Of a stretch of 64,000 nt of DNA, positions 2,963 to 38,873 are shown in pieces. Where the stretch lies: contig CAWBJH010000001.1 in NCBI GenBank assembly GCA_963789115.1, forward strand, positions 72,816 to 136,815, written 5' to 3'. Origin of the DNA: an uncultured delta proteobacterium. GTDB taxonomy: Bacteria > Desulfobacterota > Binatia > Binatales > Binataceae. A program made the translations under genes and the position numbers. The first letter of the stretch is position 1. Every line of letters starts with the position of its first letter. The notes beneath the pieces are model-generated. The model was given only the letters and a program-made list of their open reading frames with translations, was not told the origin of the DNA and did no database searches.

Positions 2963-3835
2963 CTAAATCAGCCGCAGTTCCTTCATTACCGCGCGCAGCT
3001 TTTCGGCGGGGCCGGGGGACATCTGGGCCAGCGGCATCCTGAGCTCCGCGCTGCACTTGCCCATGAAGGCGAGCGCCTGCTTGACGGGAATCGGGTTGCT
3101 CTCCAGGAACAGCGCGCGCATCAGCGGCAGCATCTTGAAGTGAATGTCCCGCGCGCGCGCGTAGTCGTCGGCCAGTGCCGCCGCGACCAGCTCGTGCATC
3201 TCGCGCGGCATCACGTTGGTGACCACCGAAATCACGCCGCTGGCGCCAAGCGCCATCATCGGCAGGGTCATCGAGTCGTCGCCCGACAGGATCGTCAGGC
3301 GATCGCCGCACAGCCGCCGGATGTCGGAGATCTGATCGATCGAGCCCGACGCCTCTTTCACGCCCACGATGTTCTTGATTTCGCAAAGGCGGGCGAACGT
3401 CTCCGGCAGTATATTGGAGCCGGTGCGGCCCGGGATGTTGTAGGCGATCAGCGGCAGGTCAACGCTAGCCGCGATCATCTTGTAGTGCTTGAAAATTCCG
3501 TCCTGGGTCGGCTTGTTGTAGTAAGGTGAAATCAGCACCGCGCCGTCCGCGCCGGCGGCGCGCGCGAAGGTTGTCAGCCGAATCGCCTCGGCCGTCGAGT
3601 TGGAGCCGGTCCCGGCCAATACCGGAACCCGCCTGTGCGTCTGCTCGATTGCGATCTTGATTATCTGCTCGTGCTCGAGGTGGGTGAGCGTGGCGGATTC
3701 CCCGGTCGAGCCGCAGGGAAAGATCCCGTCCACGCCTCTCTGTATCTGCCATTCGATGATCTCGCGCAGCGCGGTCTCGTCCACCGCTCCGTCGCGAAAC
3801 GGGGTCACGATCGCCGACAACGCACCGTTGAACAT
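2963..3835 (-). CDS. dapA: 4-hydroxy-tetrahydrodipicolinate synthase
   Basis: The translation MFNGALSAIVTPF...GSTGE...YNIPGRTG matches DapA along its full length. The start is reset to the internal ATG at 3835. The upstream 88 aa of the ORF are Arg-rich noise. Confidence 0.9.
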   Translation of the reverse strand: MFNGALSAIVTPFRDGAVDETALREIIEWQIQRGVDGIFPCGSTGESATLTHLEHEQIIKIAIEQTHRRVPVLAGTGSNSTAEAIRLTTFARAAGADGAVLISPYYNKPTQDGIFKHYKMIAASVDLPLIAYNIPGRTGSNILPETFARLCEIKNIVGVKEASGSIDQISDIRRLCGDRLTILSGDDSMTLPMMALGASGVISVVTNVMPREMHELVAAALADDYARARDIHFKMLPLMRALFLESNPIPVKQALAFMGKCSAELRMPLAQMSPGPAEKLRAVMKELRLI

Positions 3836-6695: not shown

Positions 6696-7187
6696 TCAGG
6701 GCAGTGGGGTGGGGGTGGGCATGATGTAGGTCTCCGGATTCGGCGGCGGCGCCGGTGCAACGCGCCTGAACTCGACCACGTTGGAGGGTTCGCCGCGCGT
6801 TTCGTCCTCAGTCACGGAGATGACGTCGTAGCGATAGACGCGGCCGGTCTCGGTGGCGGTGTCGATATATTCAAACTTGAGCACCTTCTGGAAGCGCTCA
6901 CGGTCGGTAACCGGCAGCCTGACCAGCGGCTCGAACGATTGGCCGGGCTCAGCGCGCATCACGATGAAGCCCGCCAGGTCCTTCATCTTGCGGCCTCGCG
7001 AGTAAAGCTCGGGGCGCGGCCACGCGAGCCGGATTCCATCCTTGTCGGCGCTTGCCGTCAGAGCGACGATCTTCTCGGGCTGCACCAGCTCGGGCGGCAT
7101 CGGGCGTCCCTTCACACCGCATCCCGTGATCGCCGCCGCCACAGAGAGCGCGCCGGCCGCGGCGATCCAGTTTTTCGGGCGCCTCAT
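6696..7187 (-). CDS. Lipoprotein of unknown function at the LppL/LptM-like position between lysA and argH
   Basis: Start MRRPKNWIAAAGALSVAAAITGC has a signal peptide and lipobox. The start ATG overlaps the argH stop by 4 bp. Confidence 0.7.
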   Translation of the reverse strand: MRRPKNWIAAAGALSVAAAITGCGVKGRPMPPELVQPEKIVALTASADKDGIRLAWPRPELYSRGRKMKDLAGFIVMRAEPGQSFEPLVRLPVTDRERFQKVLKFEYIDTATETGRVYRYDVISVTEDETRGEPSNVVEFRRVAPAPPPNPETYIMPTPTPLP

Positions 7188-8674
7188 CGGCGCGTCAGCT
7201 CTGCCAGGCGCCGGCGCACGAGTCGGGGCGCGGGGCCGCCGGCCACCCGCCTTGCCGCGATCGAGCTTTCCGCCGACAGCAGCTCGAGCGCATCCTCGCG
7301 GAACGCGAGCGAGCACTGGCGCAGGTCGTGGATGGTCAAGTCGGTGAGCGGGCGATTGCGGACCGCAGCGTGGCGGGCCAGCAGGCCGACAATTTCATGG
7401 GCTTGTCGGAACGGCACGCCGCGTTTGACCAGGTACTCGGCCAAGTCGGTCGCGAGCGCCCATCCCCCGGCCGCCTCGCGCATCGCCCGGGTGTTGAACG
7501 CGAGCCGCGGCCACAGCCTTGCCATCAAGTCGAGCGAAGGCTTGATCGAATCGAGCGCGTCGAAGACCCGCTCCTTGTCCTCCTGCAGGTCGGAGTTGTA
7601 GGCGAGCGGCAGGCCCTTGAGCACCGTGAGCATCGCGACTAGGTCGCCGGCCACGCGCCCGCTCTTGGCCCGGATCAACTCGAGCAGGTCCGGGTTCTTC
7701 TTCTGCGGCATCATCGAGCTCCCGGTCGCGAACTCGTCGGGGATCGTGACGAAGCCGAACTCGGCGCTCGACCACAGGATGATCTCCTCGCTCATCCGCG
7801 ATAGATGGATGGCCGCGATGGCGGAGGCGGAAAGGAAGTCGAGCACGAAGTCGCGATCCGATACGGCGTCGATGCTGTTCTCGGCCAGTTTCCGGAACTT
7901 GAGCTCGCGTGCGACGAACCGGCGATCGATCGGCAGCGTGGTCGCGGCCAGCGCCCCCGCCCCGAGCGGCATCACCGCGCTGCGCTCGCGCGCCTGTGCG
8001 AAGCGCTCGCGGTCGCGATCGAGCATCTCGACGTAGGCGAGCAGGTGATGGGCCAGCGAGACCGGCTGCGCGCGCTGGAGATGAGTGTAACCCGGCATCA
8101 CGCTGTTCACGTGCCGCCGCGCAACCCCGATCAGCGCGGCGCGCAGGCGCGCGAGGGACCGCATTACCTCGTCGATCTCGTCGCGCAGGAACAGCCGGAG
8201 ATCGAGCGCCACCTGGTCGTTGCGCGAACGGGCGGTATGGAGCTTCGCGCCGGCGGCGCCGATCTTCGCGATCAGCCGGCGCTCGATGGCGAGATGGATG
8301 TCTTCGTCGGAGAGCTCGAAACGGAAACGCCCGCCGCCGATCTCGCGCTCAATCCGCTCGAGTCCCGCCACGATGCGGGCCGCCTCGCGACGCGTGATTA
8401 GTCCCACGTGCGCCAGCATCCGGGCGTGCGCGATCGAGCCGCGGATATCGTGGCGGTAGAGCCGCCGGTCGAACGGCAGCGAGGCCGTGAACGCCTCGAC
8501 TTCCTTGAGCCGGCGGCGCGCGAATCGCCCGCGGATGAGACCTCCGCGCTGTCCAGCGTGCGCCTTCGAAACTTGAGACCTTTTGTTGTCGCTCACGCGA
8601 GGTTGTCGGTTGACACGCGAGGCCAACTCAGGAGAGCCTTCCGCAATCTTCGCAAACCCGGGTGCGTACTCCAT
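7184..8674 (-). CDS. argH: Argininosuccinate lyase. The start is uncertain: either the ATG at 8674, which has an SD supplied by the repeat hairpin, or the GTG at about 8596
   Basis: Full-length ArgH similarity including LIRGRF, the SRNDQ motif and the GSSMMPQKKNPD signature. Confidence 0.9.
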   Translation of the reverse strand: MEYAPGFAKIAEGSPELASRVNRQPRVSDNKRSQVSKAHAGQRGGLIRGRFARRRLKEVEAFTASLPFDRRLYRHDIRGSIAHARMLAHVGLITRREAARIVAGLERIEREIGGGRFRFELSDEDIHLAIERRLIAKIGAAGAKLHTARSRNDQVALDLRLFLRDEIDEVMRSLARLRAALIGVARRHVNSVMPGYTHLQRAQPVSLAHHLLAYVEMLDRDRERFAQARERSAVMPLGAGALAATTLPIDRRFVARELKFRKLAENSIDAVSDRDFVLDFLSASAIAAIHLSRMSEEIILWSSAEFGFVTIPDEFATGSSMMPQKKNPDLLELIRAKSGRVAGDLVAMLTVLKGLPLAYNSDLQEDKERVFDALDSIKPSLDLMARLWPRLAFNTRAMREAAGGWALATDLAEYLVKRGVPFRQAHEIVGLLARHAAVRNRPLTDLTIHDLRQCSLAFREDALELLSAESSIAARRVAGGPAPRLVRRRLAELTRR

Positions 8675-8678
8675 ATGT

Positions 8679-8916
8679 GCCCTCTCCCTGCGAAGCTGGG
8701 CGAGGGTGAGGGTGAGGGACCATACGGCGCCGCATTGGCTGCGCGGCGCCGAGGATTGAAGCGCCGCACGCTACCTCAAGCGCTTGCGACGCCGGCGTTT
8801 CGGCGGGAAGCGGAGGCAGAATCGAATGTCGCTGCCGGCGCAGCGACGCTGCGGTCCCTCTCCCGACGGTCGAAGCGACCGTCGGCCTCTCCCGACCCGG
8901 GAGAGGCCATCGCAGA
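8679..8916. repeat. Structured GC-rich intergenic repeat, copy A. It has two conserved blocks, five perfect or near-perfect hairpins and a variable spacer
   Basis: About 85% identical to 53844-54067. Hairpins include ccctctccc/gggagaggg, cggcgccgcg/cgcggcgccg, gtcgctgc/gcagcgac, cgacggtcg/cgaccgtcg and gcctctccc/gggagaggc. Confidence 0.8.
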
Positions 8917-9195
8917 TGGCGTCCGCGAGCTTCGTGATTACCTCTCATGCGAGGCGAGTCTACCAAAGTTCACGCATCAGGGCGTACAGGCGATAACCGG
9001 CCTTGCGCGCGCTCACCGCGTTGGTCGCATCTCGCACGGGCATCCGCGCGCCGCGCAACTGATCACGCCGTTGGGGTGGGTGATATGCACGTTCATCTTG
9101 TGATGGCACTTGGGGCAGTTGCCGCCCGGCGCGCGCGGGACCGCCCGTAGCTGCGGGCGTGGCGGCCTGAACTGGATGACCTTGCCCAAGCCCGG

Positions 9196-10428
<1,233 letters not shown>

Positions 10429-10439
10429 GTTATCTCCCT

Positions 10440-11390
10440 TCACAGCTCGTGCGGTGTCCAGGCCGCCATCTGGGTCAGAAGCTCCGGCCGCACCAGCCAG
10501 AGCATCACGGCTTTCTGTGTGTGCAGGCGGTTCTCGGCCTGCTCGAGCATGATCGATTGCGGGCCGTCTATCACGTCCTCGGTGACCTCTTCGCCGCGAT
10601 GGGCCGGCTGGCAATGCATCACGACCGCCTCGCGATGGGCATGCTTCATCAGCGCCCGGTTGACTTGGAAGCGCTTGAAGTCGCGCCGTCGCGCGGCGGC
10701 CTCCTTCTCGCGGCCCATCGAGGTCCAGGTGTCAGTGTACACGACTTCAGCGTCCTTGACCGCCTCGACCGGGTCGTTGGTCAGCAGCCCCAGCTCCTCG
10801 CGGCGCATCCGGGTGACAAAACTCTTCTCGGGCTCGTAGCCGGCGGGGCACGCGATCCTCAATTCGAAATGTGCCAGGGCCGCCGCCTCGATCCAGCTCT
10901 GGGCGAGATTGAAGCCATCACCGACGAAAGCGACCTTGAGCTTGTGCAAAGCGCCGAAGCGTTCGCGCAGCGTGAGCAGGTCGGCAAGCAACTGGCAGGG
11001 ATGGAGCAGGTCGGTGAGACCGTTGATGACGGGGACATCGGCCTCGCGCGCGAGCTCAACGCAGGTCTGATGGGCGAAGGTGCGGATCATGATGAGATCG
11101 ACCCATCGCGAGAGGTTGCGCGCGACGTCCTTGACCGATTCGCGCTCGCCGATGCCGATGTCGGTCGGCGCGAGATAGATGGCATGGCCGCCAAGCTGGG
11201 CCATCCCGGTCTCGAACGTGATCCGGGTGCGCAGCGATGGCTTCTGGAAGATCATCGCCAGGGTGCGCCCGCGCAGGTAAGGATGCTCGAGGCCGCCCTT
11301 GAGCTCGCCCTTGAGCCGCGCGCCGAGCGCCAGCAACGCCGAGAGCTCGGCGCCGGACAGGGAGTTGAGATCCAGGAAATCCCGCTTCAT
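10440..11390 (-). CDS. argF: Ornithine carbamoyltransferase
   Basis: Contains the STRTR-like carbamoyl-phosphate motif SLRTR, the HCQPA motif (HCLP-like) and the overall OTCase architecture. Confidence 0.9.
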
Positions 11391-12568
11391 CCCAGTGCGT
11401 GCCGGATTATCCCCAGCCCCTCATCGGCCTCCTTGATAGTCAGGTTGAGCGGCGGAAGAAGTCTTAGCACATTGCCCGCCGTGGCGTTGACTATCAAGTG
11501 TTGCTTGAGACAGGCCTCCACGACCGGCCGCGCCTCGTGCGCCAGTACGACTCCGATGATCATGCCCTGGCCACGCACCTCGACAATGCGCTTGTCGCTC
11601 CGGGCCATCTCGCGCAATTGCTCGATGATATACGCGCCGACCCTGGCGGCGTTCTCCAGCACGCCCTCCTGCTCGAACGCCTCGATTACGGCGAGCGCCG
11701 CGGCACAGGCTACCGGATTGCCGCCGAAGGTGGTGCCGTGACTGCCGGGGGTGAAGCTCTCCGCGATATCCGCCCGCGCGAGCATCGCGCCGATCGGCAG
11801 ACCGCCTCCCAGAGCCTTCGCCAGCGTCATGAGATCGGGGCGGATACCGGCGTGCTGATGCGCGAAGTACAGGCCCGTGCGGCCCATCCCGACCTGCACC
11901 TCGTCCAGGATCAGCAGCAGGTTGGCGCGGTCGCAAAGCTCGCGCATCCGCTTCAGGTAGTCGGGGCGCGGCACCACCACGCCGCCTTCTCCCTGGATGG
12001 GCTCGACCATGATGGCGACCGTGTCGGGTCCGACCGCGCGCTCCATCGCGGCGACATCGTCGAACGGCACCAGCCTGAAGCCAGGCATCAACGGCTGGAA
12101 GCCCTGGTGATATTTTTCCTGGCCGGTTGCGGTCAATGTCGCCAGCGTACGCCCATGGAAGGAGCCGAGCGCGGTGAGAATCTCGAAGCGTCCGCCGCCC
12201 CGATTGTGGCCCCATCGCCGCGCCAGCTTGATCGCCGCCTCGTTGGCCTCGGCGCCCGAGTTGCCGAGAAACACCCGCGCATCGCCGAACAGGCGGCACA
12301 GTTGTTCCGCCAGGCGCGCCATCGGCTCGGTATGGAACACGTTGGAGACGTGGATCAGCCGGGCGGTCTGCTCCTGGATCGCGCGCACGACTCGCGGATG
12401 GCTGTGGCCGAGGCTGGTGACTGCGAGCCCGCAGAAGAAGTCGAGGTAGCGGTCACCGTCGGCGTCATAGAGCCAGGCGCCTTCACCGCGCACGAAGGCG
12501 AGCGGGAGGCATCCGTAGATATTGACCAGGTATCGATGGGTTTTCTCGACGATTTCTGAATTATTCAT
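11387..12568 (-). CDS. argD: Acetylornithine aminotransferase
   Basis: Class-III aminotransferase fold. Its stop overlaps the argF start, and it sits between argB and argF. Confidence 0.85.
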   Translation of the reverse strand: MNNSEIVEKTHRYLVNIYGCLPLAFVRGEGAWLYDADGDRYLDFFCGLAVTSLGHSHPRVVRAIQEQTARLIHVSNVFHTEPMARLAEQLCRLFGDARVFLGNSGAEANEAAIKLARRWGHNRGGGRFEILTALGSFHGRTLATLTATGQEKYHQGFQPLMPGFRLVPFDDVAAMERAVGPDTVAIMVEPIQGEGGVVVPRPDYLKRMRELCDRANLLLILDEVQVGMGRTGLYFAHQHAGIRPDLMTLAKALGGGLPIGAMLARADIAESFTPGSHGTTFGGNPVACAAALAVIEAFEQEGVLENAARVGAYIIEQLREMARSDKRIVEVRGQGMIIGVVLAHEARPVVEACLKQHLIVNATAGNVLRLLPPLNLTIKEADEGLGIIRHALG

Positions 12569-12616
12569 TGCGACCGATCCGTTGCGGAGCCCGGCGGCAA
12601 AATGTAAAGTGCCGCT

Positions 12617-13558
12617 TTAAAATTGCCGGCTTCCCGAGCGGACCCGGCGCGCGGCGCGCTTGAGGTCCGCCACCCTGGCAGTGTGGCTTACGACTTCGGT
12701 GCCCACGCCGGAACGGGTGAAAATCTCGAGCAGCACGGCGTGGCGCACGCGGCCGTCGATTACGTGGGTCTTCGGCACCCCGGCGCGCAGCGCGCCGATG
12801 CAGCATTCGACCTTGGGGATCATGCCCTCGGCGATGACTGCGCGCGCGATCAGGCGCCGAGCGTTGGCCGCTTCCAGCGTCGAGATCAGGCGTCCCGCCG
12901 AGTCCTTAACGCCCTCGATGTCGGTCATCAGGATGAGCTTCTCGGCCCTGAGCGCGGCGGCAATTTTGCCGGCGGCGACGTCGGCGTTGATGTTGTAGGT
13001 CTGGCCGTCGCGGCCGGATCCGATCGGCGCGATCACCGGGATGAAGTTGTCGTCCTCCAGGGTGCGGATCACTTCCGGGTTGACGTCGACCACTTCCCCG
13101 ACCAGTCCGACATCGACCCGGCTCGAGCGCCCGTCCTTCTGCCGCACCATCATGCGCATCTTGCGCGAGACGATCAGATCGCCGTCCTTGCCCGAAAGTC
13201 CCACCGCGCGTCCGCCCTGGCGCGAGATCAGCGCAACGATTTCCTTGTTGATGCGCTGCAGCACCATCTCGGCCGCTTCCATGGTCTCGGCGTCGGTTAC
13301 GCGCATCCCACGTACGAACCGCGACTTGAGTCCGAGCTTGCCGATCAACTCGCTGATCTGCGGGCCGCCCCCATGGACGATCACGGGGTTGATGCCGACC
13401 AGCTCGAGCAGCACCACGTCCTGGGCGAAGCTCTGGCGCAACTCGGCGGTCTGCATGGCGTGGCCGCCGTACTTGATTACGAAGGTCTTGCCGCGAAAGC
13501 GCTGGATATAGGGCAGCGCCTCGATCAGGATCTCGGCGCGTTCAATCAACTCGCGCAA
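12617..13558 (-). CDS. argB: Acetylglutamate kinase
   Basis: KYGG...HGGGPQI amino-acid-kinase motifs. The start is set to the TTG at 13558 after GGGGAGA (a CTG at 13561 is also possible). The longer ORF prefix is unlikely to be translated. Confidence 0.85.
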
Positions 13559-13691
13559 CAGTTTCTCCCCCGAAGCGATTTTCCAGGACGGCGCGCACGG
13601 AAGCCCGCCCCGTTGCGAAAAGAGACTCGCCACTGTCGAAGCGGGGCGGGCGTTGCGGCCCGCCTCTGATGAGAGCCGGCTGATGCGTCCA

Positions 13692-15092
13692 CTACAGGAT
13701 GTAACGCGAGAGGTCCTCGTCCCTGACGATCGGATCGAGGCGTTCATGAACGAACGCGCCGTCAACCTTGATCTCGCGAGAGCCGAGCTCGGGTGCGTTG
13801 AACGATACGTCCTCCAGCAGCCGCTCGAGCACGGTGTGGAGCCGGCGCGCGCCGATATTCTCCGAGCGGGCGTTGACCTGCGCCGCGATCTCGGCCAGCG
13901 CCGAGACCCCGTCTTCGGTGAAGCCCAGCCGCACGTCCTCGGTTTCCATCAGCGCGACGTACTGGCGCGTCAGGGCGTTCTCGGGCTCGGTCAGGATGCG
14001 GATAAAGTCCTCCTTGGTCAAGGCTTTGAGCTCGACCCGGATCGGAAAGCGTCCTTGGAATTCGGGAATCAGGTCCGAGGGTTTGGTGACGTGAAAAGCG
14101 CCGGAAGCGATGAACAGGATGTGGTCGGTGCGCACCGTTCCGTACTTGGTATTGACCGATGAGCCTTCGACGATCGGCAGAAGGTCGCGCTGTACGCCTT
14201 CGCGGGATACGTCGGGCCCGCGGTTGGCCTCGCGCCCGGCGATCTTGTCGATCTCGTCGATGAACACGATGCCCGATTGCTCGGTGCGGCGAATCGCCTC
14301 GACCTTGACCGCCTCCATGTCCATCAGGCGCGCGGCCTCCTCCTGGGTGAGTATTTCAAGCGCTTCGGGAATTTTGACCGAACGCCGGCTGGTCTTCTTG
14401 GGCATGATCTGGCTGAAGAGTTCTTTCATGTTCACGCCCATCTCTTCCATTCCCTGCGGCGTGAAAACCTCGACCATCGGGATCGCCTGGGCGTTGACCT
14501 CGATCTCGACTTCGCGCTCGGCGAGATGGCCATCGCGCAGTAGCTTGCGGAGCTTCTCGCGGGTCTCGGCGTGCGAGTCGGAAGCGACGTTCTGGAGGTT
14601 CCCCTCGGGCGTGATCCCGATGGGTGCGCGGGGCCTGGTCGAGCGGGGCAACAGGATATCGAGCAGGCCCTCTTCAGCAGCCTCTCGTGCGCGCACCGCG
14701 ACGCGCTCGCGTTCCTCCTCGCGCACCATCTTGACCGAGGTTTCGACCAGATCGCGGATGATCGACTCGACGTCGCGTCCGACGTAGCCGACCTCGGTAT
14801 AACGGGAGGCCTCGACCTTGACGAACGGGGCCTGGGCGAGCCGCGCCAAGCGGCGCGCGATCTCGGTCTTGCCGACCCCGGTGGGGCCGATCATCAGGAT
14901 GTTCTTGGGCACGATCTCGTCGCGCAGCTCAAGGGCGACGTTTTGCCGGCGCCAGCGGTTGCGCAGCGCGATTGCGACGGCGCGCTTGGCGTCGTGCTGC
15001 CCGACGATGTAACGGTCGAGCTCGGAGACGATCTCCCGCGGCGTCATCACGTGAGGAGGCGCGAGCCGCTCGGCCTGGGTTTTGGCGCTCAC
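13692..15092 (-). CDS. hslU: ATP-dependent protease ATPase subunit HslU
   Basis: Walker A motif GPTGVGKT and HslU-specific segments such as [10 protein letters not shown]. Confidence 0.95.
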
Positions 15093-17350: not shown

Positions 17351-18781
17351 ATGGCGGATCGGCTGGCGGCGATAATCCTTGCGGCGGGACTGGGAACCCG
17401 GATGCGCTCGGCGCGCGCCAAGGTGCTGCACGAGCTCGCGGGCCGCCCGATGATCGCGCGGACCGTGCAGGCTCTGGCCGCGCTGGCCGCGGACCCGATC
17501 GTGGTGGTGGTGGGTCATCAGGCCGACGAAGTCGAGAAGGGGGCGCGCCAGGCGTGCTGCGACTCGCGGCTCCGGTTCGCCCCACAGAGCGAACAACGCG
17601 GCACCGGCGACGCCACGCGCCGCGGCTACCAGGCGATCGGCGGGGATTTCGATGGCGATGTGATGATCGTTTACGGTGACACGCCGCGACTCCGCCCGCA
17701 GACGCTGCGGGCCTTTGTTGCGGAGCATCGCAGGCGCGGCGCGGCCTTCTCCTTCATCAGCGCGGTACTCGACGATCCGGCCCAGTACGGTCGCGTGATT
17801 CGAGATTCAGGCGGCGGGGTCCGCGCGATCGTGGAGGCGTGCGACGCCCCTGTCGCGCAGTCCGGTATCATGGAAATCAACACCGGCGTCTACCTGGCGA
17901 AGTCGGGCTTTCTGCGCTCCGCGCTGCCGGAGCTCAAGCCCGGCAACAACCAAGGGGAGTACTACCTGACCGATCTGGTCGATATCGCCTGCCGCCGGGG
18001 ACTCAAGGTCGAGGCCTGCCTCGGCGAGCATCCCGCGGAGTTCGCGGGAATCAATTCGCGCAAGGAGTTGGCGCAGATGGAAGCGGAAATCCGTCACGCG
18101 GTGAACAACAGGCTAATGGAGACGGGGGTGACTCTGGTCGATCCCGCTACCGCCTATATCGGCGAGCAGGTCGAAATCGGCCGCGACTGTATAATCGGCC
18201 CTAACGTGCAGATCCTGGGCAAGAGCCGCATCGGCGAGGGCGTGCGTATCGAAGGTACCGCCTATCTTCGCGACGTCACGGTCGGCGACCGATGCCATCT
18301 CAAGCTCGGCGTGTGCGCCGAGGAGTGCACGATCGGTCCGGAATGCGAAATCGGTCCGTTCGCGAACCTGCGCGCCGGCACCGAGCTCGAAGGCCGCAAC
18401 CGGATCGGCAACTTCGTCGAGACCAAGAAGGCGCGCATCGGGCGCGGCACCAAGGCGAGTCACCTCTCGTATCTCGGCGACGCGATCATCGGACGCGAGA
18501 CCAACGTCGGATGCGGGGTTATCACGGTCAACTACGACGGCTACGACAAACATCTGAGCCAGATCGGGGACCGATGCATGGTAGGATGCGACAGCCAGTT
18601 CGTGGCGCCGGTCAAGGTCGGCAACGACGTCTACGTGGCTTCGGGCACCACTATCCTGCGCGACGTGGCCGACGGCGCGCTCGTCATGTCGTATCATCGG
18701 CAACAGGAGAGGCCCGGATGGACCGCGGAGTTTCACCAGCGTCATCGGGGACGCCGGCCGTGGTGGGCCGAAAAAGAGTGA
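17351..18781 (+). CDS. glmU: Bifunctional UDP-GlcNAc pyrophosphorylase and GlcN-1-P acetyltransferase
   Basis: N-terminal LAAGxGTRM nucleotidyltransferase motif and C-terminal left-handed beta-helix hexapeptide repeats. Confidence 0.9.
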   Translation: MADRLAAIILAAGLGTRMRSARAKVLHELAGRPMIARTVQALAALAADPIVVVVGHQADEVEKGARQACCDSRLRFAPQSEQRGTGDATRRGYQAIGGDFDGDVMIVYGDTPRLRPQTLRAFVAEHRRRGAAFSFISAVLDDPAQYGRVIRDSGGGVRAIVEACDAPVAQSGIMEINTGVYLAKSGFLRSALPELKPGNNQGEYYLTDLVDIACRRGLKVEACLGEHPAEFAGINSRKELAQMEAEIRHAVNNRLMETGVTLVDPATAYIGEQVEIGRDCIIGPNVQILGKSRIGEGVRIEGTAYLRDVTVGDRCHLKLGVCAEECTIGPECEIGPFANLRAGTELEGRNRIGNFVETKKARIGRGTKASHLSYLGDAIIGRETNVGCGVITVNYDGYDKHLSQIGDRCMVGCDSQFVAPVKVGNDVYVASGTTILRDVADGALVMSYHRQQERPGWTAEFHQRHRGRRPWWAEKE

Positions 18782-18871
18782 GTTGATTGGATGCTCCAGT
18801 GGGGGTAAAGTCGTTTTCAATTACAGCGAGAATGGGAGGTAACGAGGTAGCCAAATAGCAATGTAACGGAG

Positions 18872-19045
18872 AGTAGCGCCAGGACTCACAATCGTGAGTT
18901 GACGAGGTGGAAGCTTATCGAACAATTCGGCGGATGGCTTCCCGGTTCCACGATCGTTAGAGGCGGACAAAACCTGCGGGCGACCGCGCGACAACAACCG
19001 TCTCAAGTGGGCGTAGCAAATCGCTCCGCTACGACCTTCTAAACT
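18872..19045 (+). ncRNA. glmS_ribozyme: glmS ribozyme (GlcN6P-dependent self-cleaving riboswitch). The predicted cleavage site is between A18875 and G18876
   Basis: AGCGCCAGGACU(P1: CACAAUCGUGAG)UUGACGAGGUGGAAGCUUAUCGAACAAUUCGGCGGAUGGCUUCCCGGUU matches the glmS ribozyme core. It is immediately 5' of glmS and the local GC is lower. Confidence 0.85.
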
Positions 19046-19165
19046 CTCCCATCAGGCCGGTCAAAACTCAGCTCGGCAACACGAGACAAGGTCGACGTTT
19101 GCCGGGCTCTCCAGCAGTGCGCTGCGCGGAGAATGTATGCATCGCGGAGAAGGAGAGCACGAAAC

Positions 19166-20998
19166 ATGTGCGGAATAGTTGGTTACATCGGATGGGAAGA
19201 GGCTTGCCCAATTCTGCTCAATGGGCTGCAGAAGCTCGAATATCGCGGTTACGACTCGGCCGGAATCGCGACCGTGACGGACAACGGCAAGATGGAGGTC
19301 CGGCGCGCCGCGGGAAAGCTCGGAGAGCTGCGCAGGCGGTTGGAGGAGTCGCCGCTGGCGGGCAAAATCGGCATCGGGCACACGCGATGGGCCACGCACG
19401 GCCGCCCCTCCGAGGAAAACGCGCATCCGCACAAGGCGGGCCCGGTCGCCGTGATTCACAACGGAATTGTCGAGAACTTCGTCGACCTGCGCGCCGCCCT
19501 GCTCAAACGCAACCACAAGCTGCGCTCCGAGACCGACACCGAGCTGATCGCCCATCTTATCGAAGAGCGCCTAAGGGAGGGCCTGGGGCTCACCGAGGCG
19601 GTGCGGATGGCGGTGCGCGAGCTGCGCGGCTCGTTTTCGATCGTGGTGCTGTGCGAGACCGAGCCCGACAAGCTGGTCGCGGCCAAGACCGCCACGCCCC
19701 TGGTGATCGGCTTCGGCAAGGGCGAGAACTTCGTCGCTTCCGATATCCCGGCGCTGCTGGAGCATACCCGGCGCGCGATGGTGCTCGAAGACGGCGAGAT
19801 CGCGGAGGTCAGCGCCAAGGCGGTGCGCCTGATGAGCTTCGACGGCACCCCGGTAGCGCGCGCCCCCCGCACTATCGAATGGGACGCAGTCGCGGCGACC
19901 AAGGCCGGCTTCCAGCATTATCTGCGCAAGGAGATCAGCGAGCAGCCACAGGCCTGGATCGACACGATGGCGGGGCGGGCCAGCGCCGGCTCGGCGGCGG
20001 TGACCTTTGAGGACGAGGTGCTGCCGCCGGGCGGTCCCGAGGCGATCGGGCGGATAGTGTTCGTCGCGGCGGGCGCCTCCTACATCACCTCGCTGATCGG
20101 CAAGTACATAATCGAGGAGCTGAGCGGGATTCCGGTCGAGGTCGACTATTCGCACGAGTTCCGCTACCGCCAGCCCACGATCGACCGGCGCACGACGGTG
20201 ATCGCCGTATCGCAGTCGGGCGAGACCGCCGACACGCTGGCAGCGATGGAAGAGAGCAGGCGGCGCGGGAGCCATCTGATCGCGGTGACCAACACGGTTG
20301 ACTCGTCGATCGCGCGCAAAGCCGACGCCCGGATCTACACGCGATGCGGCCCGGAGATCAGCGTCACCACCACAAAGTGCTTCCTGACCCAGATCGAGGC
20401 CTACTACCTTCTTGCGATACACCTGGCGGCCCGGATGGGTAGGCTTTCGGAAGGCGAAGGCGAAGCGATACTGAAACCGGCCTTTGCCATTCCGGCGCAG
20501 ATCGAAACCGTGCTGGGACTGGAGGATCAGATCAAGGCGATCGCGCACAAGTACTTCAACGCACGCGACTTCTTGTACCTGGGACGCGGAATCAACTTTC
20601 CGGTCGCGCTTGAGGGCGCGCTCAAGCTCAAGGAGATTTCCTACATCCACGCCGAGGGCTACTCGGCGGGAGAGATGAAGCACGGGCCGATCGCGCTGAT
20701 CGACGAGTCGATGCCGGTTGTGGTGATAATCCCGCACGACAACGTGTTCGAGAAGACGCTGTCAAACCTGAAGGAAGTCGAGTCGCGCAAAGGCAGGATA
20801 ATTGCGCTTACCGATCGGTCGAGCGCCGAGTTGAAGAGCGTTGCGCAAGACATCATAGAGGTTCCCGCCACCCATCGGATGCTGACGCCGGTGCTGATGA
20901 CGGTGCCGCTCCAACTGCTCGCCTATCACATCGCAGTGCTGCGCGGCACCGACGTCGATCAGCCGCGCAACCTCGCCAAGTCGGTGACGGTGGAGTAG
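19166..20998 (+). CDS. glmS: Glutamine--fructose-6-phosphate aminotransferase
   Basis: Start MCGIVGY with catalytic Cys2, after an AGGAGAG RBS. SIS domains and the C-terminal ...VAKSVTVE are present. Confidence 0.95.
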   Translation: MCGIVGYIGWEEACPILLNGLQKLEYRGYDSAGIATVTDNGKMEVRRAAGKLGELRRRLEESPLAGKIGIGHTRWATHGRPSEENAHPHKAGPVAVIHNGIVENFVDLRAALLKRNHKLRSETDTELIAHLIEERLREGLGLTEAVRMAVRELRGSFSIVVLCETEPDKLVAAKTATPLVIGFGKGENFVASDIPALLEHTRRAMVLEDGEIAEVSAKAVRLMSFDGTPVARAPRTIEWDAVAATKAGFQHYLRKEISEQPQAWIDTMAGRASAGSAAVTFEDEVLPPGGPEAIGRIVFVAAGASYITSLIGKYIIEELSGIPVEVDYSHEFRYRQPTIDRRTTVIAVSQSGETADTLAAMEESRRRGSHLIAVTNTVDSSIARKADARIYTRCGPEISVTTTKCFLTQIEAYYLLAIHLAARMGRLSEGEGEAILKPAFAIPAQIETVLGLEDQIKAIAHKYFNARDFLYLGRGINFPVALEGALKLKEISYIHAEGYSAGEMKHGPIALIDESMPVVVIIPHDNVFEKTLSNLKEVESRKGRIIALTDRSSAELKSVAQDIIEVPATHRMLTPVLMTVPLQLLAYHIAVLRGTDVDQPRNLAKSVTVE

Positions 20999-21039: not shown

Positions 21040-22901
21040 ATAGGGGGTAGCGGCGGACCGCTACTCCCCTGCCACACCACCGGACATGCGGGTCCGCATC
21101 CGGCGGTTCGGAAGGTTGAGGTTAATCGGCAAGGCGAGGAACTCCGAGTCGGTCGTAGTAGCGGATGGTGAGTCCGGTCTGGACCAGCTTGGCAGCGCGA
21201 TACCACCAGCGCCGTCCGGTGACAGCGGCCTCGGCCGCCGCGACGTGAGGCAGTCCGAGTCTACGCAGCTCGGTGTAGATTTTGGGGCCACGCTTCCACT
21301 GCTTGAGTTGCAGCGCACGCAGACGATGGCGAATCCACTTGTCGTGGTCAGCGAAGGCTCCCGGTGTATCCGCCAGTTGGAAGTACTGCTTCCATCCCGG
21401 CAGATAGCTCCGTAGCTCCGCCACCACCGTGCGCAGACTTCGCCCGCCGCTGCGCCGGGTAATCTGGCGCACCCGTTGCCTGAGCATCGCGGTGGCCTTG
21501 GGAGCGACGCGGCGCATGACCGCACCGCCCTTGCCGTACCAGAAGCTGAAGCCAAGCAAGCTCCGCTTCGATACCGGCGCCACCGCGCTCTTTTCGCGGT
21601 TGACTCGTAGCCGGAGCCGCGCGTACAGACGCTCCAGCGCCGTCATTACCCGCTCGCCCGCGCGCTTGGACCGCACGTACACATTGCAGTCGTCGGCATA
21701 GCGGACGAAGGCATGGCCGCGCTTCTCCAACTCCTTGTCGACCTCGTCGAGCAGCAGATTGGCCAGCAGCGGTGACAGTGGTCCGCCCTGCGGCGTCCCC
21801 TCCAGGCGCTCCACCACTACCCCGTTGGCCATCATGCCGGCCTTGAGGTAGCGGCGGATTAATCGCAGCAGGCGGCTGTCGCCGACTCTTCTCGCCAGCC
21901 TTCCCATCAGCACATCGTGATTGACGCGGTCGAAGAATTTCTCCAAGTCCACGTCCACCACCCAGCGCCGGCCTTCCCTGACGTAGCGCTGCGCGGATAA
22001 AACCGCGTCGTGGGCGCTGCGCCCCGGTCGAAAGCCGAAGCTGTGCTCCGAGAAGCTGGGGTCGAATAGCGGCTGCAGCACCTGCAGGATGGCCTGTTGG
22101 ATAAGCCGGTCGAGCACGCACGGGATGCCCAGTTCGCGCATCCCGCCGCCCGACTTGGGAATCTCCTGCCGCCGCACCGGTTTCGGCTGGTAGGTGCCGC
22201 CCAGCAGTTGCTCGCGCACCCCTGACCAGCGCTCCATCAAGCATTGCGGCAGTTCTTCCACTGTCATCCCATCGACCCCGGGGCTGCCCCGGTTCTCCCG
22301 CACCCGCGCCAACGCCGCCTTGACGTTGCCGCGCGCGACCACCTGCTCCATCAGGTGGTCGTCTCCCGAGCGCACCTTCCCGTTCGTCATCGTCGGCGCT
22401 TCGCCACTTCGCCCAGCCCTCGGAGCTTCACTCCTGGGCTTGAACGCAAGTTCCGCTTGCGCGGAGTTCCGGCGCCTGGCGCGGTTCGGACTCACGATGG
22501 TTTCGCTCTCCCTTCCGTTCGGCCCTTCACCAACTCGGCTTTCAAGGCCCTGCCCTCTCCGGCTGGCTACTACGGCCTCGGCTGACTTCTCGCGCCGCCT
22601 TATGGCGTCACCCTTCCAGGCGCAGGGCGAGATCTCCCCAGGTAAGACTCCGTGACCTTCCCCGCACAACCGCCGGATCTACGCAGTGGCTCCTTGGCCG
22701 CGAGGGCTTCGCGGTCTTTTGCCCGCTCGCCCTGAGCCACCGCGCCTTGTATCCGATTCCTGTTCGTCGGCTCGCGGGTTTGCTCCACGCTTCTTTCAGC
22801 GATTGCCTCGCGGCTCATCGCCTTGCGCTTCGCTAGTGCTCGCTGCGGTCTGCTCACACAGGGGACTTTCACCTCACAAGTCACGCGTCGTGCTGGGCAC
22901 A
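21040..22901 (-). mobile_element. Bacterial class C (IIC) group II intron, about 1.86 kb, with boundaries approximate at the 3' end
   Basis: The 5' GUGUG lies directly after the U-tract of a rho-independent terminator. The RT/maturase ORF is internal. Domain V- and VI-like hairpins lie downstream of the ORF at about 21030-21095. Confidence 0.75.
21122..22390 (-). CDS. Group II intron reverse transcriptase/maturase, about 422 aa, with no endonuclease domain
   Basis: RT motifs including YADD and a C-terminal X/maturase region. The start is set to MTNGKVRS. The upstream part of the long ORF covers intron RNA domains I-III. Confidence 0.85.
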   Translation of the reverse strand: MTNGKVRSGDDHLMEQVVARGNVKAALARVRENRGSPGVDGMTVEELPQCLMERWSGVREQLLGGTYQPKPVRRQEIPKSGGGMRELGIPCVLDRLIQQAILQVLQPLFDPSFSEHSFGFRPGRSAHDAVLSAQRYVREGRRWVVDVDLEKFFDRVNHDVLMGRLARRVGDSRLLRLIRRYLKAGMMANGVVVERLEGTPQGGPLSPLLANLLLDEVDKELEKRGHAFVRYADDCNVYVRSKRAGERVMTALERLYARLRLRVNREKSAVAPVSKRSLLGFSFWYGKGGAVMRRVAPKATAMLRQRVRQITRRSGGRSLRTVVAELRSYLPGWKQYFQLADTPGAFADHDKWIRHRLRALQLKQWKRGPKIYTELRRLGLPHVAAAEAAVTGRRWWYRAAKLVQTGLTIRYYDRLGVPRLAD

Positions 22902-37025: not shown

Positions 37026-38873
37026 TCAGGCGCTAAGGAAGAACATGGCGATGTCGGCGTTCAGGTTCGGGTCGTCGTGTACCGCTTCACCAGATTCGCT
37101 GTTCAAGCAGATCTCGCGCAGCACCCGGATGCCGATAGCCTCGCAAAGTTCTCGGACGTCAATGATCGACGCGAATCGACGATTCGGAGTGTCGTACCAT
37201 TCGTAGCCGTAGAGCCCCGGAACCGTGGGCGAGCGACCCTGTTCGTAATACATCTGCCGGAGCTTACGATACGCGAAATTGGGAAAGCTCACGATGCCCA
37301 GCCCGCCGACGCGCGTGATCTCGCGCAGGATGCCCTTGGTGTCGGTGATGCATTGCAGGGCCTGGGAGAGCACCACCACGTCGAACTGCTTGTCGCGAAA
37401 ACTGTTCAACCCATCGTTGAGATCCGCGTTGATGACGTTGAGGCCGCGCGAGACACATTCGAGGACGGCCCGCTCGTCCACCTCCAGGCCGACCACGCGG
37501 CCATGACCCTTGGCAATGAGCTCGGCCATGAGCTGGCCGCTGCCGCATCCCAGGTCCAGGACACTGCTGCCGGGCGGAATCTCATCCACCAGGATTCGCA
37601 GGTCCACGCGGTCGCCTTGAAAAAAGGAGCTCGATGACAGCTGCGGCGCTGACGTTTCATGACGGTCGCCGCCGAGGGGCGGTCCGGTCAGGTTGTCGAG
37701 GAACCCGCGGACCAATCCGCCGTAGGTGTCGACGCTGTCCGCGAGCAGGAACGCATCGTGGCCGCTGGCGCTCGTGACCTCGCAATACGACACGGGCTTG
37801 TCGAGCGCCAACAAAGCGTCGGCGATCTGCCGGCCTTGCTCCGGCGGGAACAGCCAATCGCTCGAGAAGCTTACCACCAGCCACCGGCATTGCGACGGAG
37901 CGAGCGCGGCCTGCAACGTTGTCGGCGTGTCGCCGACGTTGAACAAGTCCATCACCATCGACAGGGTTACGTAGCTGTTGGCGTCGAACCGCTCGACGAA
38001 TCTGTCGCCCTGATAGGCCAGATAGGAGCCAACCGAGAACTTCTTTTCGAACGCGGTCGGCACGGCCCGCGGGCGCAGCCGGCTTGGGTCGAACTTGGCG
38101 GTCATCGACTCGGGCGACAGGTACGTGATGTGCCCGAGCATGCGGGCCAGCGCGAGACCGACGGCGGGTCCCTGCCCGCCGTAGTAGCGGCCGCCGTGGT
38201 AGTGCGGGTCGTGCATGACGGCGTTACGTGCCACCACGTCGAACGCCAACGCCTGGGTGGTGAGCCGGGGCGCTGTCGCGATCGCCACGCACACGCGGAC
38301 CCGGTCGGGATGGCGGATTGCCCAGGTGATAGCCTGGTGCCCGCCCATCGACCCGCCGATTACTGCGCGCAGCTTGCGGATGCCAAGATGGTCGATCAGC
38401 CACCGCTGCACTTCCACGGTGTCGGCGGTGGTTATGGTGGGGAAGTCCGACGCGTACGGCTGACCGGTGAGGGGATCGATACTGTTCGGGCCGGTAGTGC
38501 CGCGGCATCCGCCAAGGATGTTGGAGCAGACGACGAAGTACCGCTTGGTGTCGATGAAACCGCTCGGCCCGACGACCACGTCCCACCATCCGGGAAGGTC
38601 CGCATCGTCGTGGCGGGCCACGTGCGAATCGCCGCTGATAGCGTGGCAGATCAGCACGGCGTTGTCTCCGGCCTCGCTCAGCTCTCCATAAGTCTCGTAG
38701 GTGACACTGACTTCCGGCAGTTCGCCGCCGAGTTCCAGTTTCAGCGGGGTGTCGAACGTGACGTGCCTGGCATGCAGCAACGGCGCGGCGGAGCGGACCG
38801 CGTCGCTGCTATCGAAATCGCGCGGCGGCTTTGTCTGATGGCCGAGCGGCTGCGTGGTCCGAGATTTCACCAT
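37026..38873 (-). CDS. metX: Homoserine O-acetyltransferase MetX fused to a MetW methyltransferase-like domain
   Basis: N-terminal alpha/beta-hydrolase MetX with GGSMGG. C-terminal MetW-like SAM-methyltransferase domain with LDLGCGSG. Confidence 0.85.
   Translation of the reverse strand: MVKSRTTQPLGHQTKPPRDFDSSDAVRSAAPLLHARHVTFDTPLKLELGGELPEVSVTYETYGELSEAGDNAVLICHAISGDSHVARHDDADLPGWWDVVVGPSGFIDTKRYFVVCSNILGGCRGTTGPNSIDPLTGQPYASDFPTITTADTVEVQRWLIDHLGIRKLRAVIGGSMGGHQAITWAIRHPDRVRVCVAIATAPRLTTQALAFDVVARNAVMHDPHYHGGRYYGGQGPAVGLALARMLGHITYLSPESMTAKFDPSRLRPRAVPTAFEKKFSVGSYLAYQGDRFVERFDANSYVTLSMVMDLFNVGDTPTTLQAALAPSQCRWLVVSFSSDWLFPPEQGRQIADALLALDKPVSYCEVTSASGHDAFLLADSVDTYGGLVRGFLDNLTGPPLGGDRHETSAPQLSSSSFFQGDRVDLRILVDEIPPGSSVLDLGCGSGQLMAELIAKGHGRVVGLEVDERAVLECVSRGLNVINADLNDGLNSFRDKQFDVVVLSQALQCITDTKGILREITRVGGLGIVSFPNFAYRKLRQMYYEQGRSPTVPGLYGYEWYDTPNRRFASIIDVRELCEAIGIRVLREICLNSESGEAVHDDPNLNADIAMFFLSA

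Follow-up and report, generated by a model that had tools for sequence, protein, structure and literature searches.

We analysed a 64,000-nucleotide (nt) stretch of DNA (hereafter the window) from a soil bacterium that is uncultured and belongs to the Binataceae (candidate phylum Binatota), focusing on an RNA element situated between glmU and glmS, the latter being the gene for glucosamine-6-phosphate (GlcN6P) synthase. Judged by its sequence, the element is a genuine glmS ribozyme (a member of Rfam family RF00234), since it agrees with every feature of sequence and structure by which that family is recognized, and we consider it likely that it represents a complete, very probably active riboswitch that would cleave itself in a GlcN6P-dependent manner within the 5′ leader of glmS. 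To our knowledge, no natural ribozyme other than that of glmS employs a metabolite as cofactor. The finding places such an RNA in an uncultured phylum, against a literature that contrasts a Gram-positive ribozyme with an enterobacterial small RNA.

Identity and structure of the ribozyme

A scan of the whole window against Rfam (at the curated gathering thresholds) returned three matches in all: RF00234, RF02001 and RF01998. The RF00234 (glmS) match covers positions 18864-19014 of the plus strand, scores 84.3 bits (gathering score 37, E = 6.4e-18) and is untruncated, its alignment spanning model positions 1-167 of 167. The scissile bond is predicted between A18875 and G18876 (marked by a slash in the motifs below), so that the ribozyme proper extends from 18876 to ~19010. 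The cleavage-site strand UA/GCGCCAG (18874-18882, with A6 bulged) is invariant in 46/46 relatives, and the stretches A/GCGCC, GACGAGG, UAUCGA and UCGGCGGAUG of the core are identical to the family consensus. All ribozyme-bearing relatives put through Rfam (16/16) obtained comparable scores (77-95 bits).

The element is bordered on the same strand by a 476-amino-acid glmU (17351-18781, stop codon TGA at 18779-18781; NCBIfam TIGR01173, 498 bits at a cut-off of 367) and a 610-amino-acid glmS (ATG at 19166, ending at 20998, protein start MCGIVG; NCBIfam TIGR01135, 789 bits), the product of which is encoded identically in the metagenome-assembled genome (MAG) GCA_049279895.1. The end of glmU lies 94 nt before the cleavage site and the glmS start codon 291 nt after it; the start codon is 150 nt away from the ribozyme in the window and up to 450 nt away in relatives. 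Wherever the contig extends to glmS (among the ribozyme-bearing genome loci and the 47 leaders compared), the gene is found downstream of the ribozyme and on the same strand.

These results bear out most of an earlier, sequence-only reading of the window, which had proposed a glmS ribozyme between glmU and glmS in a high-GC genome with diderm-type neighbours. The strings it quoted were all located (AGCGCCAGGACU at 18875-18886, GACGAGG at 18901-18907, GCUUAUCGAACAAUUCGGCGGAUGGCUUCCCGGUU at 18913-18947 and the P1 hairpin GACUCAC-AAUC-GUGAGUU at 18883-18900), the RF00234 score lies far beyond chance, and the two protein-family matches named above flank the element on its own strand. Likewise, the cleavage product that it expected to start at G18876 agrees with the position of the scissile bond in the family alignment, and helices P1 to P4.1, together with both core pseudoknots, can form. 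The interval it claimed (18790-19170) holds in that it spans everything from the -10 element of the promoter to the ribosome-binding site (RBS) of glmS, with the ribozyme and the leader sequence on either side of it; as an extent for the ribozyme itself (18876 to ~19010) it is too wide. The GC content of the window (~64%) and the nearby genes for HslU and a MacB-type transporter (as well as for the arginine pathway) fit the surroundings that it had described.

The nested helices were taken from the Rfam alignment, while the pseudoknots were placed by the Thermoanaerobacter tengcongensis numbering (PMC7125110), in which the core comprises P2.2 (C2-G56 to C5-G53, plus G7-C52) and P2.1 (residues 28-30 with 43-45). 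In the window (all positions on the plus strand), P2.2 corresponds to 18877-18880 and 18882 with 18928-18932 (CGCC+G:CGGCG), and P1 (18883-18889 with 18894-18900) follows directly 3′ of the cleavage-site strand. The core is completed by P2.1 (18903-18905 with 18918-18920, CGA:UCG) and P2 (18909-18914 with 18937-18942), and the peripheral domain by P3 (18943-18946 with 18953-18956), the P3.1 pseudoknot (18948-18951 with 19007-19010, CCAC:GUGG), P4 (18960-18966 with 18998-19004) and P4.1 (18973-18979 with 18984-18990), the last capped by the GNRA loop GCGA (18980-18983).

Covariation was assessed for the full structure including pseudoknots (56 pairs), using 46 distinct aligned sequences of Binataceae type. 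Paired cells amounted to 95.5%, against 32-40% when the partners were slid by 1-3 columns, and both sides changed in 25 of the 56 pairs; none of 500 shuffles reached the observed values. Compensatory changes were found in 5/7 pairs of P1 (97.8% of cells paired), 6/7 of P4 and 4/7 of P4.1, P2 was 100% paired with two covarying pairs, and in P3.1 the CCAC:GUGG of the window is replaced by GCAC:GUGC (L066; relatives are denoted by L numbers) and UCAC:GUGA (L024). As compensatory changes are so widespread, they point to purifying selection on the structure. The invariant P2.1 and P2.2 are consistent with the structure and gain no support from covariation; they are invariant across the glmS ribozyme family too (PMC2258182). 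The minimum free energy (MFE) fold of the whole spacer was discarded as evidence (z = -1.03, non-significant), and is uninformative here because the ribozyme is pseudoknotted.

Candidate promoter, glmU and predicted transcription of the unit

A candidate sigma-70-type promoter (18783-18811, plus strand) begins 2 nt past the glmU stop codon, with TTGATT (18783-18788) as -35 element, a 17-nt spacer and TAAAGT (18806-18811) as -10 element, from which a transcription start at ~18818 and a 5′ leader of ~58 nt (18818-18875, equivalent to the 5′ cleavage fragment) are predicted. The 130 nt preceding the cleavage site were aligned and scored against TTGACA/TATAAT (maximum 12). In 45/47 related loci a TTGnnn-17-nAnAAT element of fixed spacing lies 46-77 nt ahead of that site, and the two loci lacking it at that place carry an insertion. 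The mean score was 8.4/12, as compared to 4.7 in equal-length controls from glmS coding sequence, and scores of 9 or more were attained by 23/47 loci and 0/43 controls. The sole promoter reported by a generic scan of the window (TTGACG-16-AACAAT, 18899-18926) was treated as a chance match, as its position falls within the conserved core of the ribozyme (uuGACGagg). A leader peptide ending at the UAG over the cleavage site was also considered and rejected: the GUG/AUG...UAG frame seen in the clade of L060 is unconserved, the window offers AUG-UAA only, and a start codon is missing in L039.

The ribozyme-glmS unit of at least 12 relatives stands apart from glmU, either separated from it by other DNA or genes (L004, L037, L056, L060, L063, L071, L074) or with no glmU within 3.5 kb (L047, L057, L061, L062, L077). 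Considering that the promoter is conserved and that relatives without an adjoining glmU exist, the promoter-ribozyme-glmS unit is best read as autonomous, and the ribozyme most simply as part of the 5′ leader, the arrangement known from Firmicutes. The uncoupling of glmS from a glmU cotranscript, which the sequence-only reading had put forward as the main role, is not well borne out, given the promoter between glmU and the ribozyme in those 45 of 47 loci and the relatives in which glmU does not adjoin.

The DNA inserted between glmU and the ribozyme varies in kind. It was found to be a beta-lactamase-family gene in L060 (933-1832; Pfam PF13354, E = 9e-44), an open reading frame (ORF) resembling it by N-terminal sequence in L074 (1581-2495), and a glutathione S-transferase (GST) gene on the opposite strand in L004 (2162-2773).

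Downstream of glmU we found a weak terminator-like hairpin (18792-18807, 6 pairs including a G-U) and nothing stronger before glmS, for which reason read-through from glmU probably occurs and would add longer transcripts that the ribozyme would also cut. One could go further and propose that glmU and glmS are mainly co-transcribed, and that the ribozyme chiefly cuts the bicistronic RNA, so that glmS is lowered while the glmU mRNA persists (a ribozyme would then play the part that RNase E/GlmZ have for Escherichia coli glmUS). The short same-strand distance between glmU and the cleavage site and the weakness of the intervening hairpin are in line with such intercistronic processing, as are the direct adjacency of glmU in ~14 ribozyme-bearing relatives and the 40-160 nt glmU-glmS spacer in nearly all ribozyme-less ones (suggestive of an ancestral operon); its physiological logic would be that of E. 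coli (PMC4152352). However, the conserved promoter between glmU and the ribozyme speaks against it, as does the fact that the module works without glmU (the seven separated loci and the five with none within 3.5 kb), and we regard processing of a bicistronic RNA as a rather unlikely main function.

Helices beyond the family model and proposed routes to repression

Two further helices, both predicted unguided by RNAalifold, lie outside the RF00234 model. The extra hairpin P5 (19012-19028) directly follows P3.1, and all six of its pairs show compensatory changes (94.6% of cells paired in the 46 sequences); an alternative, perfect register is available in the window (19012-19017 with 19028-19033). 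The closing helix P0 joins GGAGAGU of the leader (18868-18874) to an ACUCUCC box (19043-19049), its 5′ strand GAGAGU occupying positions -7 to -2 relative to the cleavage site and the box lying ~170 nt downstream. Its six pairs occur in 46/46 sequences; L048 and L175 have the compensatory GAAAGU:ACUUUC, and L163 has a G-U pair. The energy of P0 in single sequences (z-scores of ~ -0.6) is without significance, and its support comes from positional conservation and covariation.

Analogous helices between the leader and the 3′ flank were observed in other high-GC lineages, namely GAGAGC:GCUCUC (L094, L138), AAGAGC:GCUCUU (L167), GGAGC:GCUCC (L160), GAUGAGU:ACUCAUC (L150) and GGUGAGU:ACUCACC (L200); L112 likewise pairs its leader with a segment 3′ of the ribozyme, and some of the changes across these lineages are compensatory. 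Thus, such a closing helix may be widespread among glmS ribozymes. We found no description of it in the literature searched, which excluded the main glmS-ribozyme surveys. We rejected a second family-wide helix, in which leader positions -58 to -9 would pair with the 46 nt that follow the box (self-pairing of -25.7 kcal/mol on average vs -24.2 kcal/mol for unrelated pairs); pairing of this kind has no general signal but is strong in L148, L077, L071 and L156.

The box also complements GGAGAG, the Shine-Dalgarno sequence of glmS (19152-19157, 8 nt before the start codon, and part of AAGGAGAG at 19150-19157). A second element of similar sequence, GCUCUCC (19106-19112), was noticed in the downstream leader from the sequence and the MFE models; it could pair locally with GGAGAA (~19128-19133) or with the Shine-Dalgarno sequence.

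In the mechanism we propose, transcription would start at ~18818, from the promoter just past the glmU stop codon, and at high GlcN6P the RNA would take this metabolite as cofactor and cut itself between A18875 and G18876. Cleavage of the type that characterizes the family yields 2′,3′-cyclic phosphate and 5′-hydroxyl ends; here it would free the ~58-nt leader fragment and leave the glmS mRNA with a 5′-hydroxyl end. Shut-off could then proceed by 5′-to-3′ exonucleolytic decay (by an RNase J-type enzyme) or by occlusion of the RBS after loss of the P0 leader strand, and the net outcome would be feedback repression of GlcN6P synthase, with glmU spared. The first route has its precedent in Bacillus, where the 5′-hydroxyl glmS mRNA is degraded by RNase J1 (PMC3997798, PMC4152352), and by analogy is plausible in the Binataceae, given that delta-proteobacteria often carry RNase J (alongside RNases E/G and Y; PMC3997798).

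The second route would amount to a translational switch actuated by cleavage. In the uncleaved RNA P0 would hold the ACUCUCC box and leave the Shine-Dalgarno sequence free, while in the cleaved RNA the leader fragment, retained only by the 6-7 base pairs (bp) of P0, would dissociate and the box would block the Shine-Dalgarno sequence, with no need for RNase J. We offer this as a tentative proposal that is more likely wrong than right. Both P0 strands are nearly invariant in 46/46 sequences while their flanks vary, i.e. they are more conserved than a simple helix requires, in keeping with a Shine-Dalgarno mimic, an anti-Shine-Dalgarno box and the actual Shine-Dalgarno sequence that constrain one another. 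The partner that suits the box best in the downstream leader falls in the last 32 nt ahead of the ATG in 35 of 47 leaders, the matches extending to 7-11 bp in some (L037, with CUCCCGC:GCGGGAG, as well as L044, L054, L186 and L004), and in the window and four relatives (L054, L163, L186, L008) the leader strand equals the sequence of the Shine-Dalgarno region. The three-part arrangement recurs in an unrelated high-GC lineage (L094, L138, L160), with GAGAGC/GGAGC in the leader, GCUCUC/GCUCC downstream and GGAGC as Shine-Dalgarno sequence.

When the ribozyme was treated as a closed domain in folding models, the mean probability that the Shine-Dalgarno region is unpaired was 0.39 (native leader), 0.30 (shuffled leaders) and 0.26 (leader removed); 24 sequences show a drop exceeding 0.1, and 2 show a rise. 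For the window, the modelled pairing of the box with the Shine-Dalgarno sequence goes from 0.00 to 0.84 on leader removal, and unconstrained models yielded unpaired probabilities of 0.36 vs 0.28.

These figures have to be set against the fact that any CUCC-rich strand complements any Shine-Dalgarno sequence, so that part of the signal is trivial; moreover, the modelled effect is modest and its p-values are inflated, as the sequences are related. In one clade (L012, L016, L079, L028 and others, with AAAGGAGCG as Shine-Dalgarno sequence) the complementarity is limited to 4-5 bp and a local hairpin of its own lies beside the Shine-Dalgarno sequence, while some relatives have a much longer complementarity between leader and 3′ flank that would keep the fragment bound. 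In the window itself, the model pairs the box not with the P0 strand but with AUGGGAG in the 5′ leader (18832-18838, plus strand); in the alignments of relatives, this leader shows a conserved GAGG box as well as GAGAGUA. A U-A/C-G compensatory change between the extension of the box and the region preceding the Shine-Dalgarno sequence (L117 vs L198) was dropped, since a local hairpin (CCCUGC...GCAGGG) explains it equally well.

If the switch is real, it could repress glmS without RNase J, and P0 together with the anti-Shine-Dalgarno-like box provides a testable answer to how cleavage silences genes where decay of the RNase J1 type may not operate. With Shine-Dalgarno-sequestering platforms such as the E. 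coli thiM thiamine pyrophosphate (TPP) and lysC lysine riboswitches it would share three elements (anti-anti-Shine-Dalgarno strand, anti-Shine-Dalgarno strand and Shine-Dalgarno sequence) whose pairings exclude one another. It would differ from them in its trigger, since the anti-anti-Shine-Dalgarno strand would be detached by an irreversible scission of the RNA, in place of ligand-induced refolding. It seems improbable, though worth stating, that the glmS ribozyme of the Binataceae, and perhaps that of further high-GC lineages, has in this way an expression platform of its own, working as an irreversible, scission-actuated translational switch.

Distribution, known systems and genomic surroundings

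The relatives derive from a scan with GlmS across one genome per species, from which the 80 closest loci (GlmS 71-83% identical) were retained, all 80 labelled as MAGs of Candidatus Binataceae or of delta- or unclassified proteobacteria. By iterated nhmmer searches, the ribozyme was detected in 28 of the 80 genome loci, as well as in L001, the window's own twin; Rfam found none in nine nhmmer-negative loci, the long-spacer ones included. In the ribozyme-less genomes glmU and glmS are separated by ~40-160 nt in nearly all cases, the exceptions being L003, L018 and L076, in whose long spacers a decayed ribozyme was looked for and dismissed (no Rfam matches). In a GlmS neighbour-joining tree the ribozyme-bearing loci fall mostly into one large clade; as there are exceptions to it, the sequence data indicate that the promoter-ribozyme module was lost or gained several times in the family. 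The genomes with the module, set beside the bare glmU-glmS junctions, provide a natural comparison that could show gain, loss and replacement. A further ~25 Binataceae-type ribozymes, and ~35 from other high-GC lineages (GlmS 36-51% identical, no glmU upstream), came from scanning metagenomes with a core pattern specific to the lineage.

Part of the variation in these spacers is associated with what look like mobile sequences. The spacer of L003 holds (at 3060-3460) an ORF for a 101-amino-acid protein with a GIY-YIG nuclease domain (Pfam PF01541, E = 9e-17), situated between 37-nt inverted repeats TGTCATTCCGAGCGCTGCGCGAGGAATCTCATGCCAC and having the appearance of a small mobile element. Palindromes (GTCATTCTGAGCG...CGCTCAGAATGAC) resembling miniature inverted-repeat transposable elements (MITEs) or repetitive extragenic palindromic (REP) sequences were found in L018 (3310-3390) and in the glmS leaders of L039, L047, L057, L061 and L071, where they explain much of the variation in leader and spacer length; a search of the window for the MITE-like repeat GTCATTCYGAGCG found none.

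Several observations weigh against a complete and active riboswitch of the kind proposed. In the window, P4.1 contains a C-C mismatch (18974/18989; the sole flaw within the family model) and P5 a U-C mismatch, both peripheral. The promoter scores 8/12 and is weaker than most, its -10 element TAAAGT falling short of those of the relatives, and the generic promoter scan does not report 18783-18811 (below its threshold). The window groups in the GlmS tree with the ribozyme-less L002 and L003 (its closest relatives there), and the ribozyme is missing from 52/80 related genomes, from which it follows that it is dispensable in the family. As for the decay route, Collins et al. (2007) reportedly observed that, in E. 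coli, cleaved glmS-leader transcripts lost stability only when RNase J1 was supplied. A published E. coli ribozyme reporter strain carries an RNase J1 gene (PMC7967978).

The patchy presence (absence from the genomes closest in GlmS included) and the two mismatched helices would also suit a relic in decay, no longer functional yet still recognized by the covariance model, but this is very improbable, as all catalytic-core positions equal the consensus, promoter, P0, P5 and box are all kept, the scores of the relatives are uniformly high and compensatory changes abound.

With respect to the glmS ribozymes of Bacillus subtilis, B. anthracis and T. tengcongensis, the A/GCGCC strand and the nucleotides of the double-pseudoknot core (P2.2-P2-P2.1) are identical, and as in Firmicute-type ribozymes we find the same P1, the same P3/P3.1/P4/P4.1 domain with its GNRA loop and the same place (in the 5′ leader of glmS, on its strand and behind a promoter of its own). 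What differs from the Gram-positive examples is the high-GC Binatota host, the position in the window right behind glmU, the addition in the Binataceae of P5, P0 (nt -7 to -2) and the conserved ACUCUCC box, the long distance from ribozyme to ATG, and the patchy presence within one family. In E. coli glmUS (controlled by GlmY/GlmZ, RapZ and RNase E) the gene order is the same, and there, too, GlcN6P feeds back post-transcriptionally on glmS only; given read-through, an intercistronic cut would likewise split the fates of glmU and glmS (PMC4152352). The two systems differ in that the Binataceae RNA would cut itself with GlcN6P as cofactor and thereby switch glmS off, whereas in E. coli RNase E cuts and a small RNA rescues the glmS mRNA; moreover, the E. 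coli spacer measures 161 nt and has no ribozyme, while that of the window is filled by one. Neither GlmZ nor GlmY was matched by Rfam in the 64-kb window (the rest of the genome being outside the scan).

glmS ribozymes are already known in some diderm or high-GC groups (e.g., Deinococcus-Thermus, Fusobacteria and Synergistetes), which tempers the surprise of the present host. The literature describes the ribozyme from ‘many Gram-positive bacteria’ and ‘only a few groups’ (PMC5473149, PMC2258182) and as a Gram-positive device (PMC5473149, PMC4152352), while for the enterobacterial glmUS, regulated by GlmY/GlmZ, ‘a ribozyme is not detectable’ (PMC4152352). No paper linking it to Binatota, Deltaproteobacteria, Chloroflexi or Acidobacteria was found in the literature searched, outside of which the published phylum surveys lie. 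Thus, this is a known RNA family in a lineage for which we found no description, and what is unusual about it are the host, the place behind glmU and the patchiness, together with the lineage-specific P0/P5 additions, which might amount to an expression platform of a new kind.

The wider surroundings of the unit include, upstream of glmU (7184-15092), a minus-strand run of arginine genes (argH 7184-8674, argG 9196-10614, argD 11387-12568 and argB 12617-13765) followed on the same strand by hslU (13692-15092), and, farther downstream, an ORF with fused metX-metW (37026-38873). Just past glmS, a group II intron occupies 21122-22817 of the minus strand, recognized by the two remaining Rfam matches (RF02001, D1-D4-3, 121.6 bits, 22647-22817; RF01998, 22522-22605) and by an ORF (21122-22669) for a group II reverse transcriptase/maturase (TIGR04416, 404 bits).

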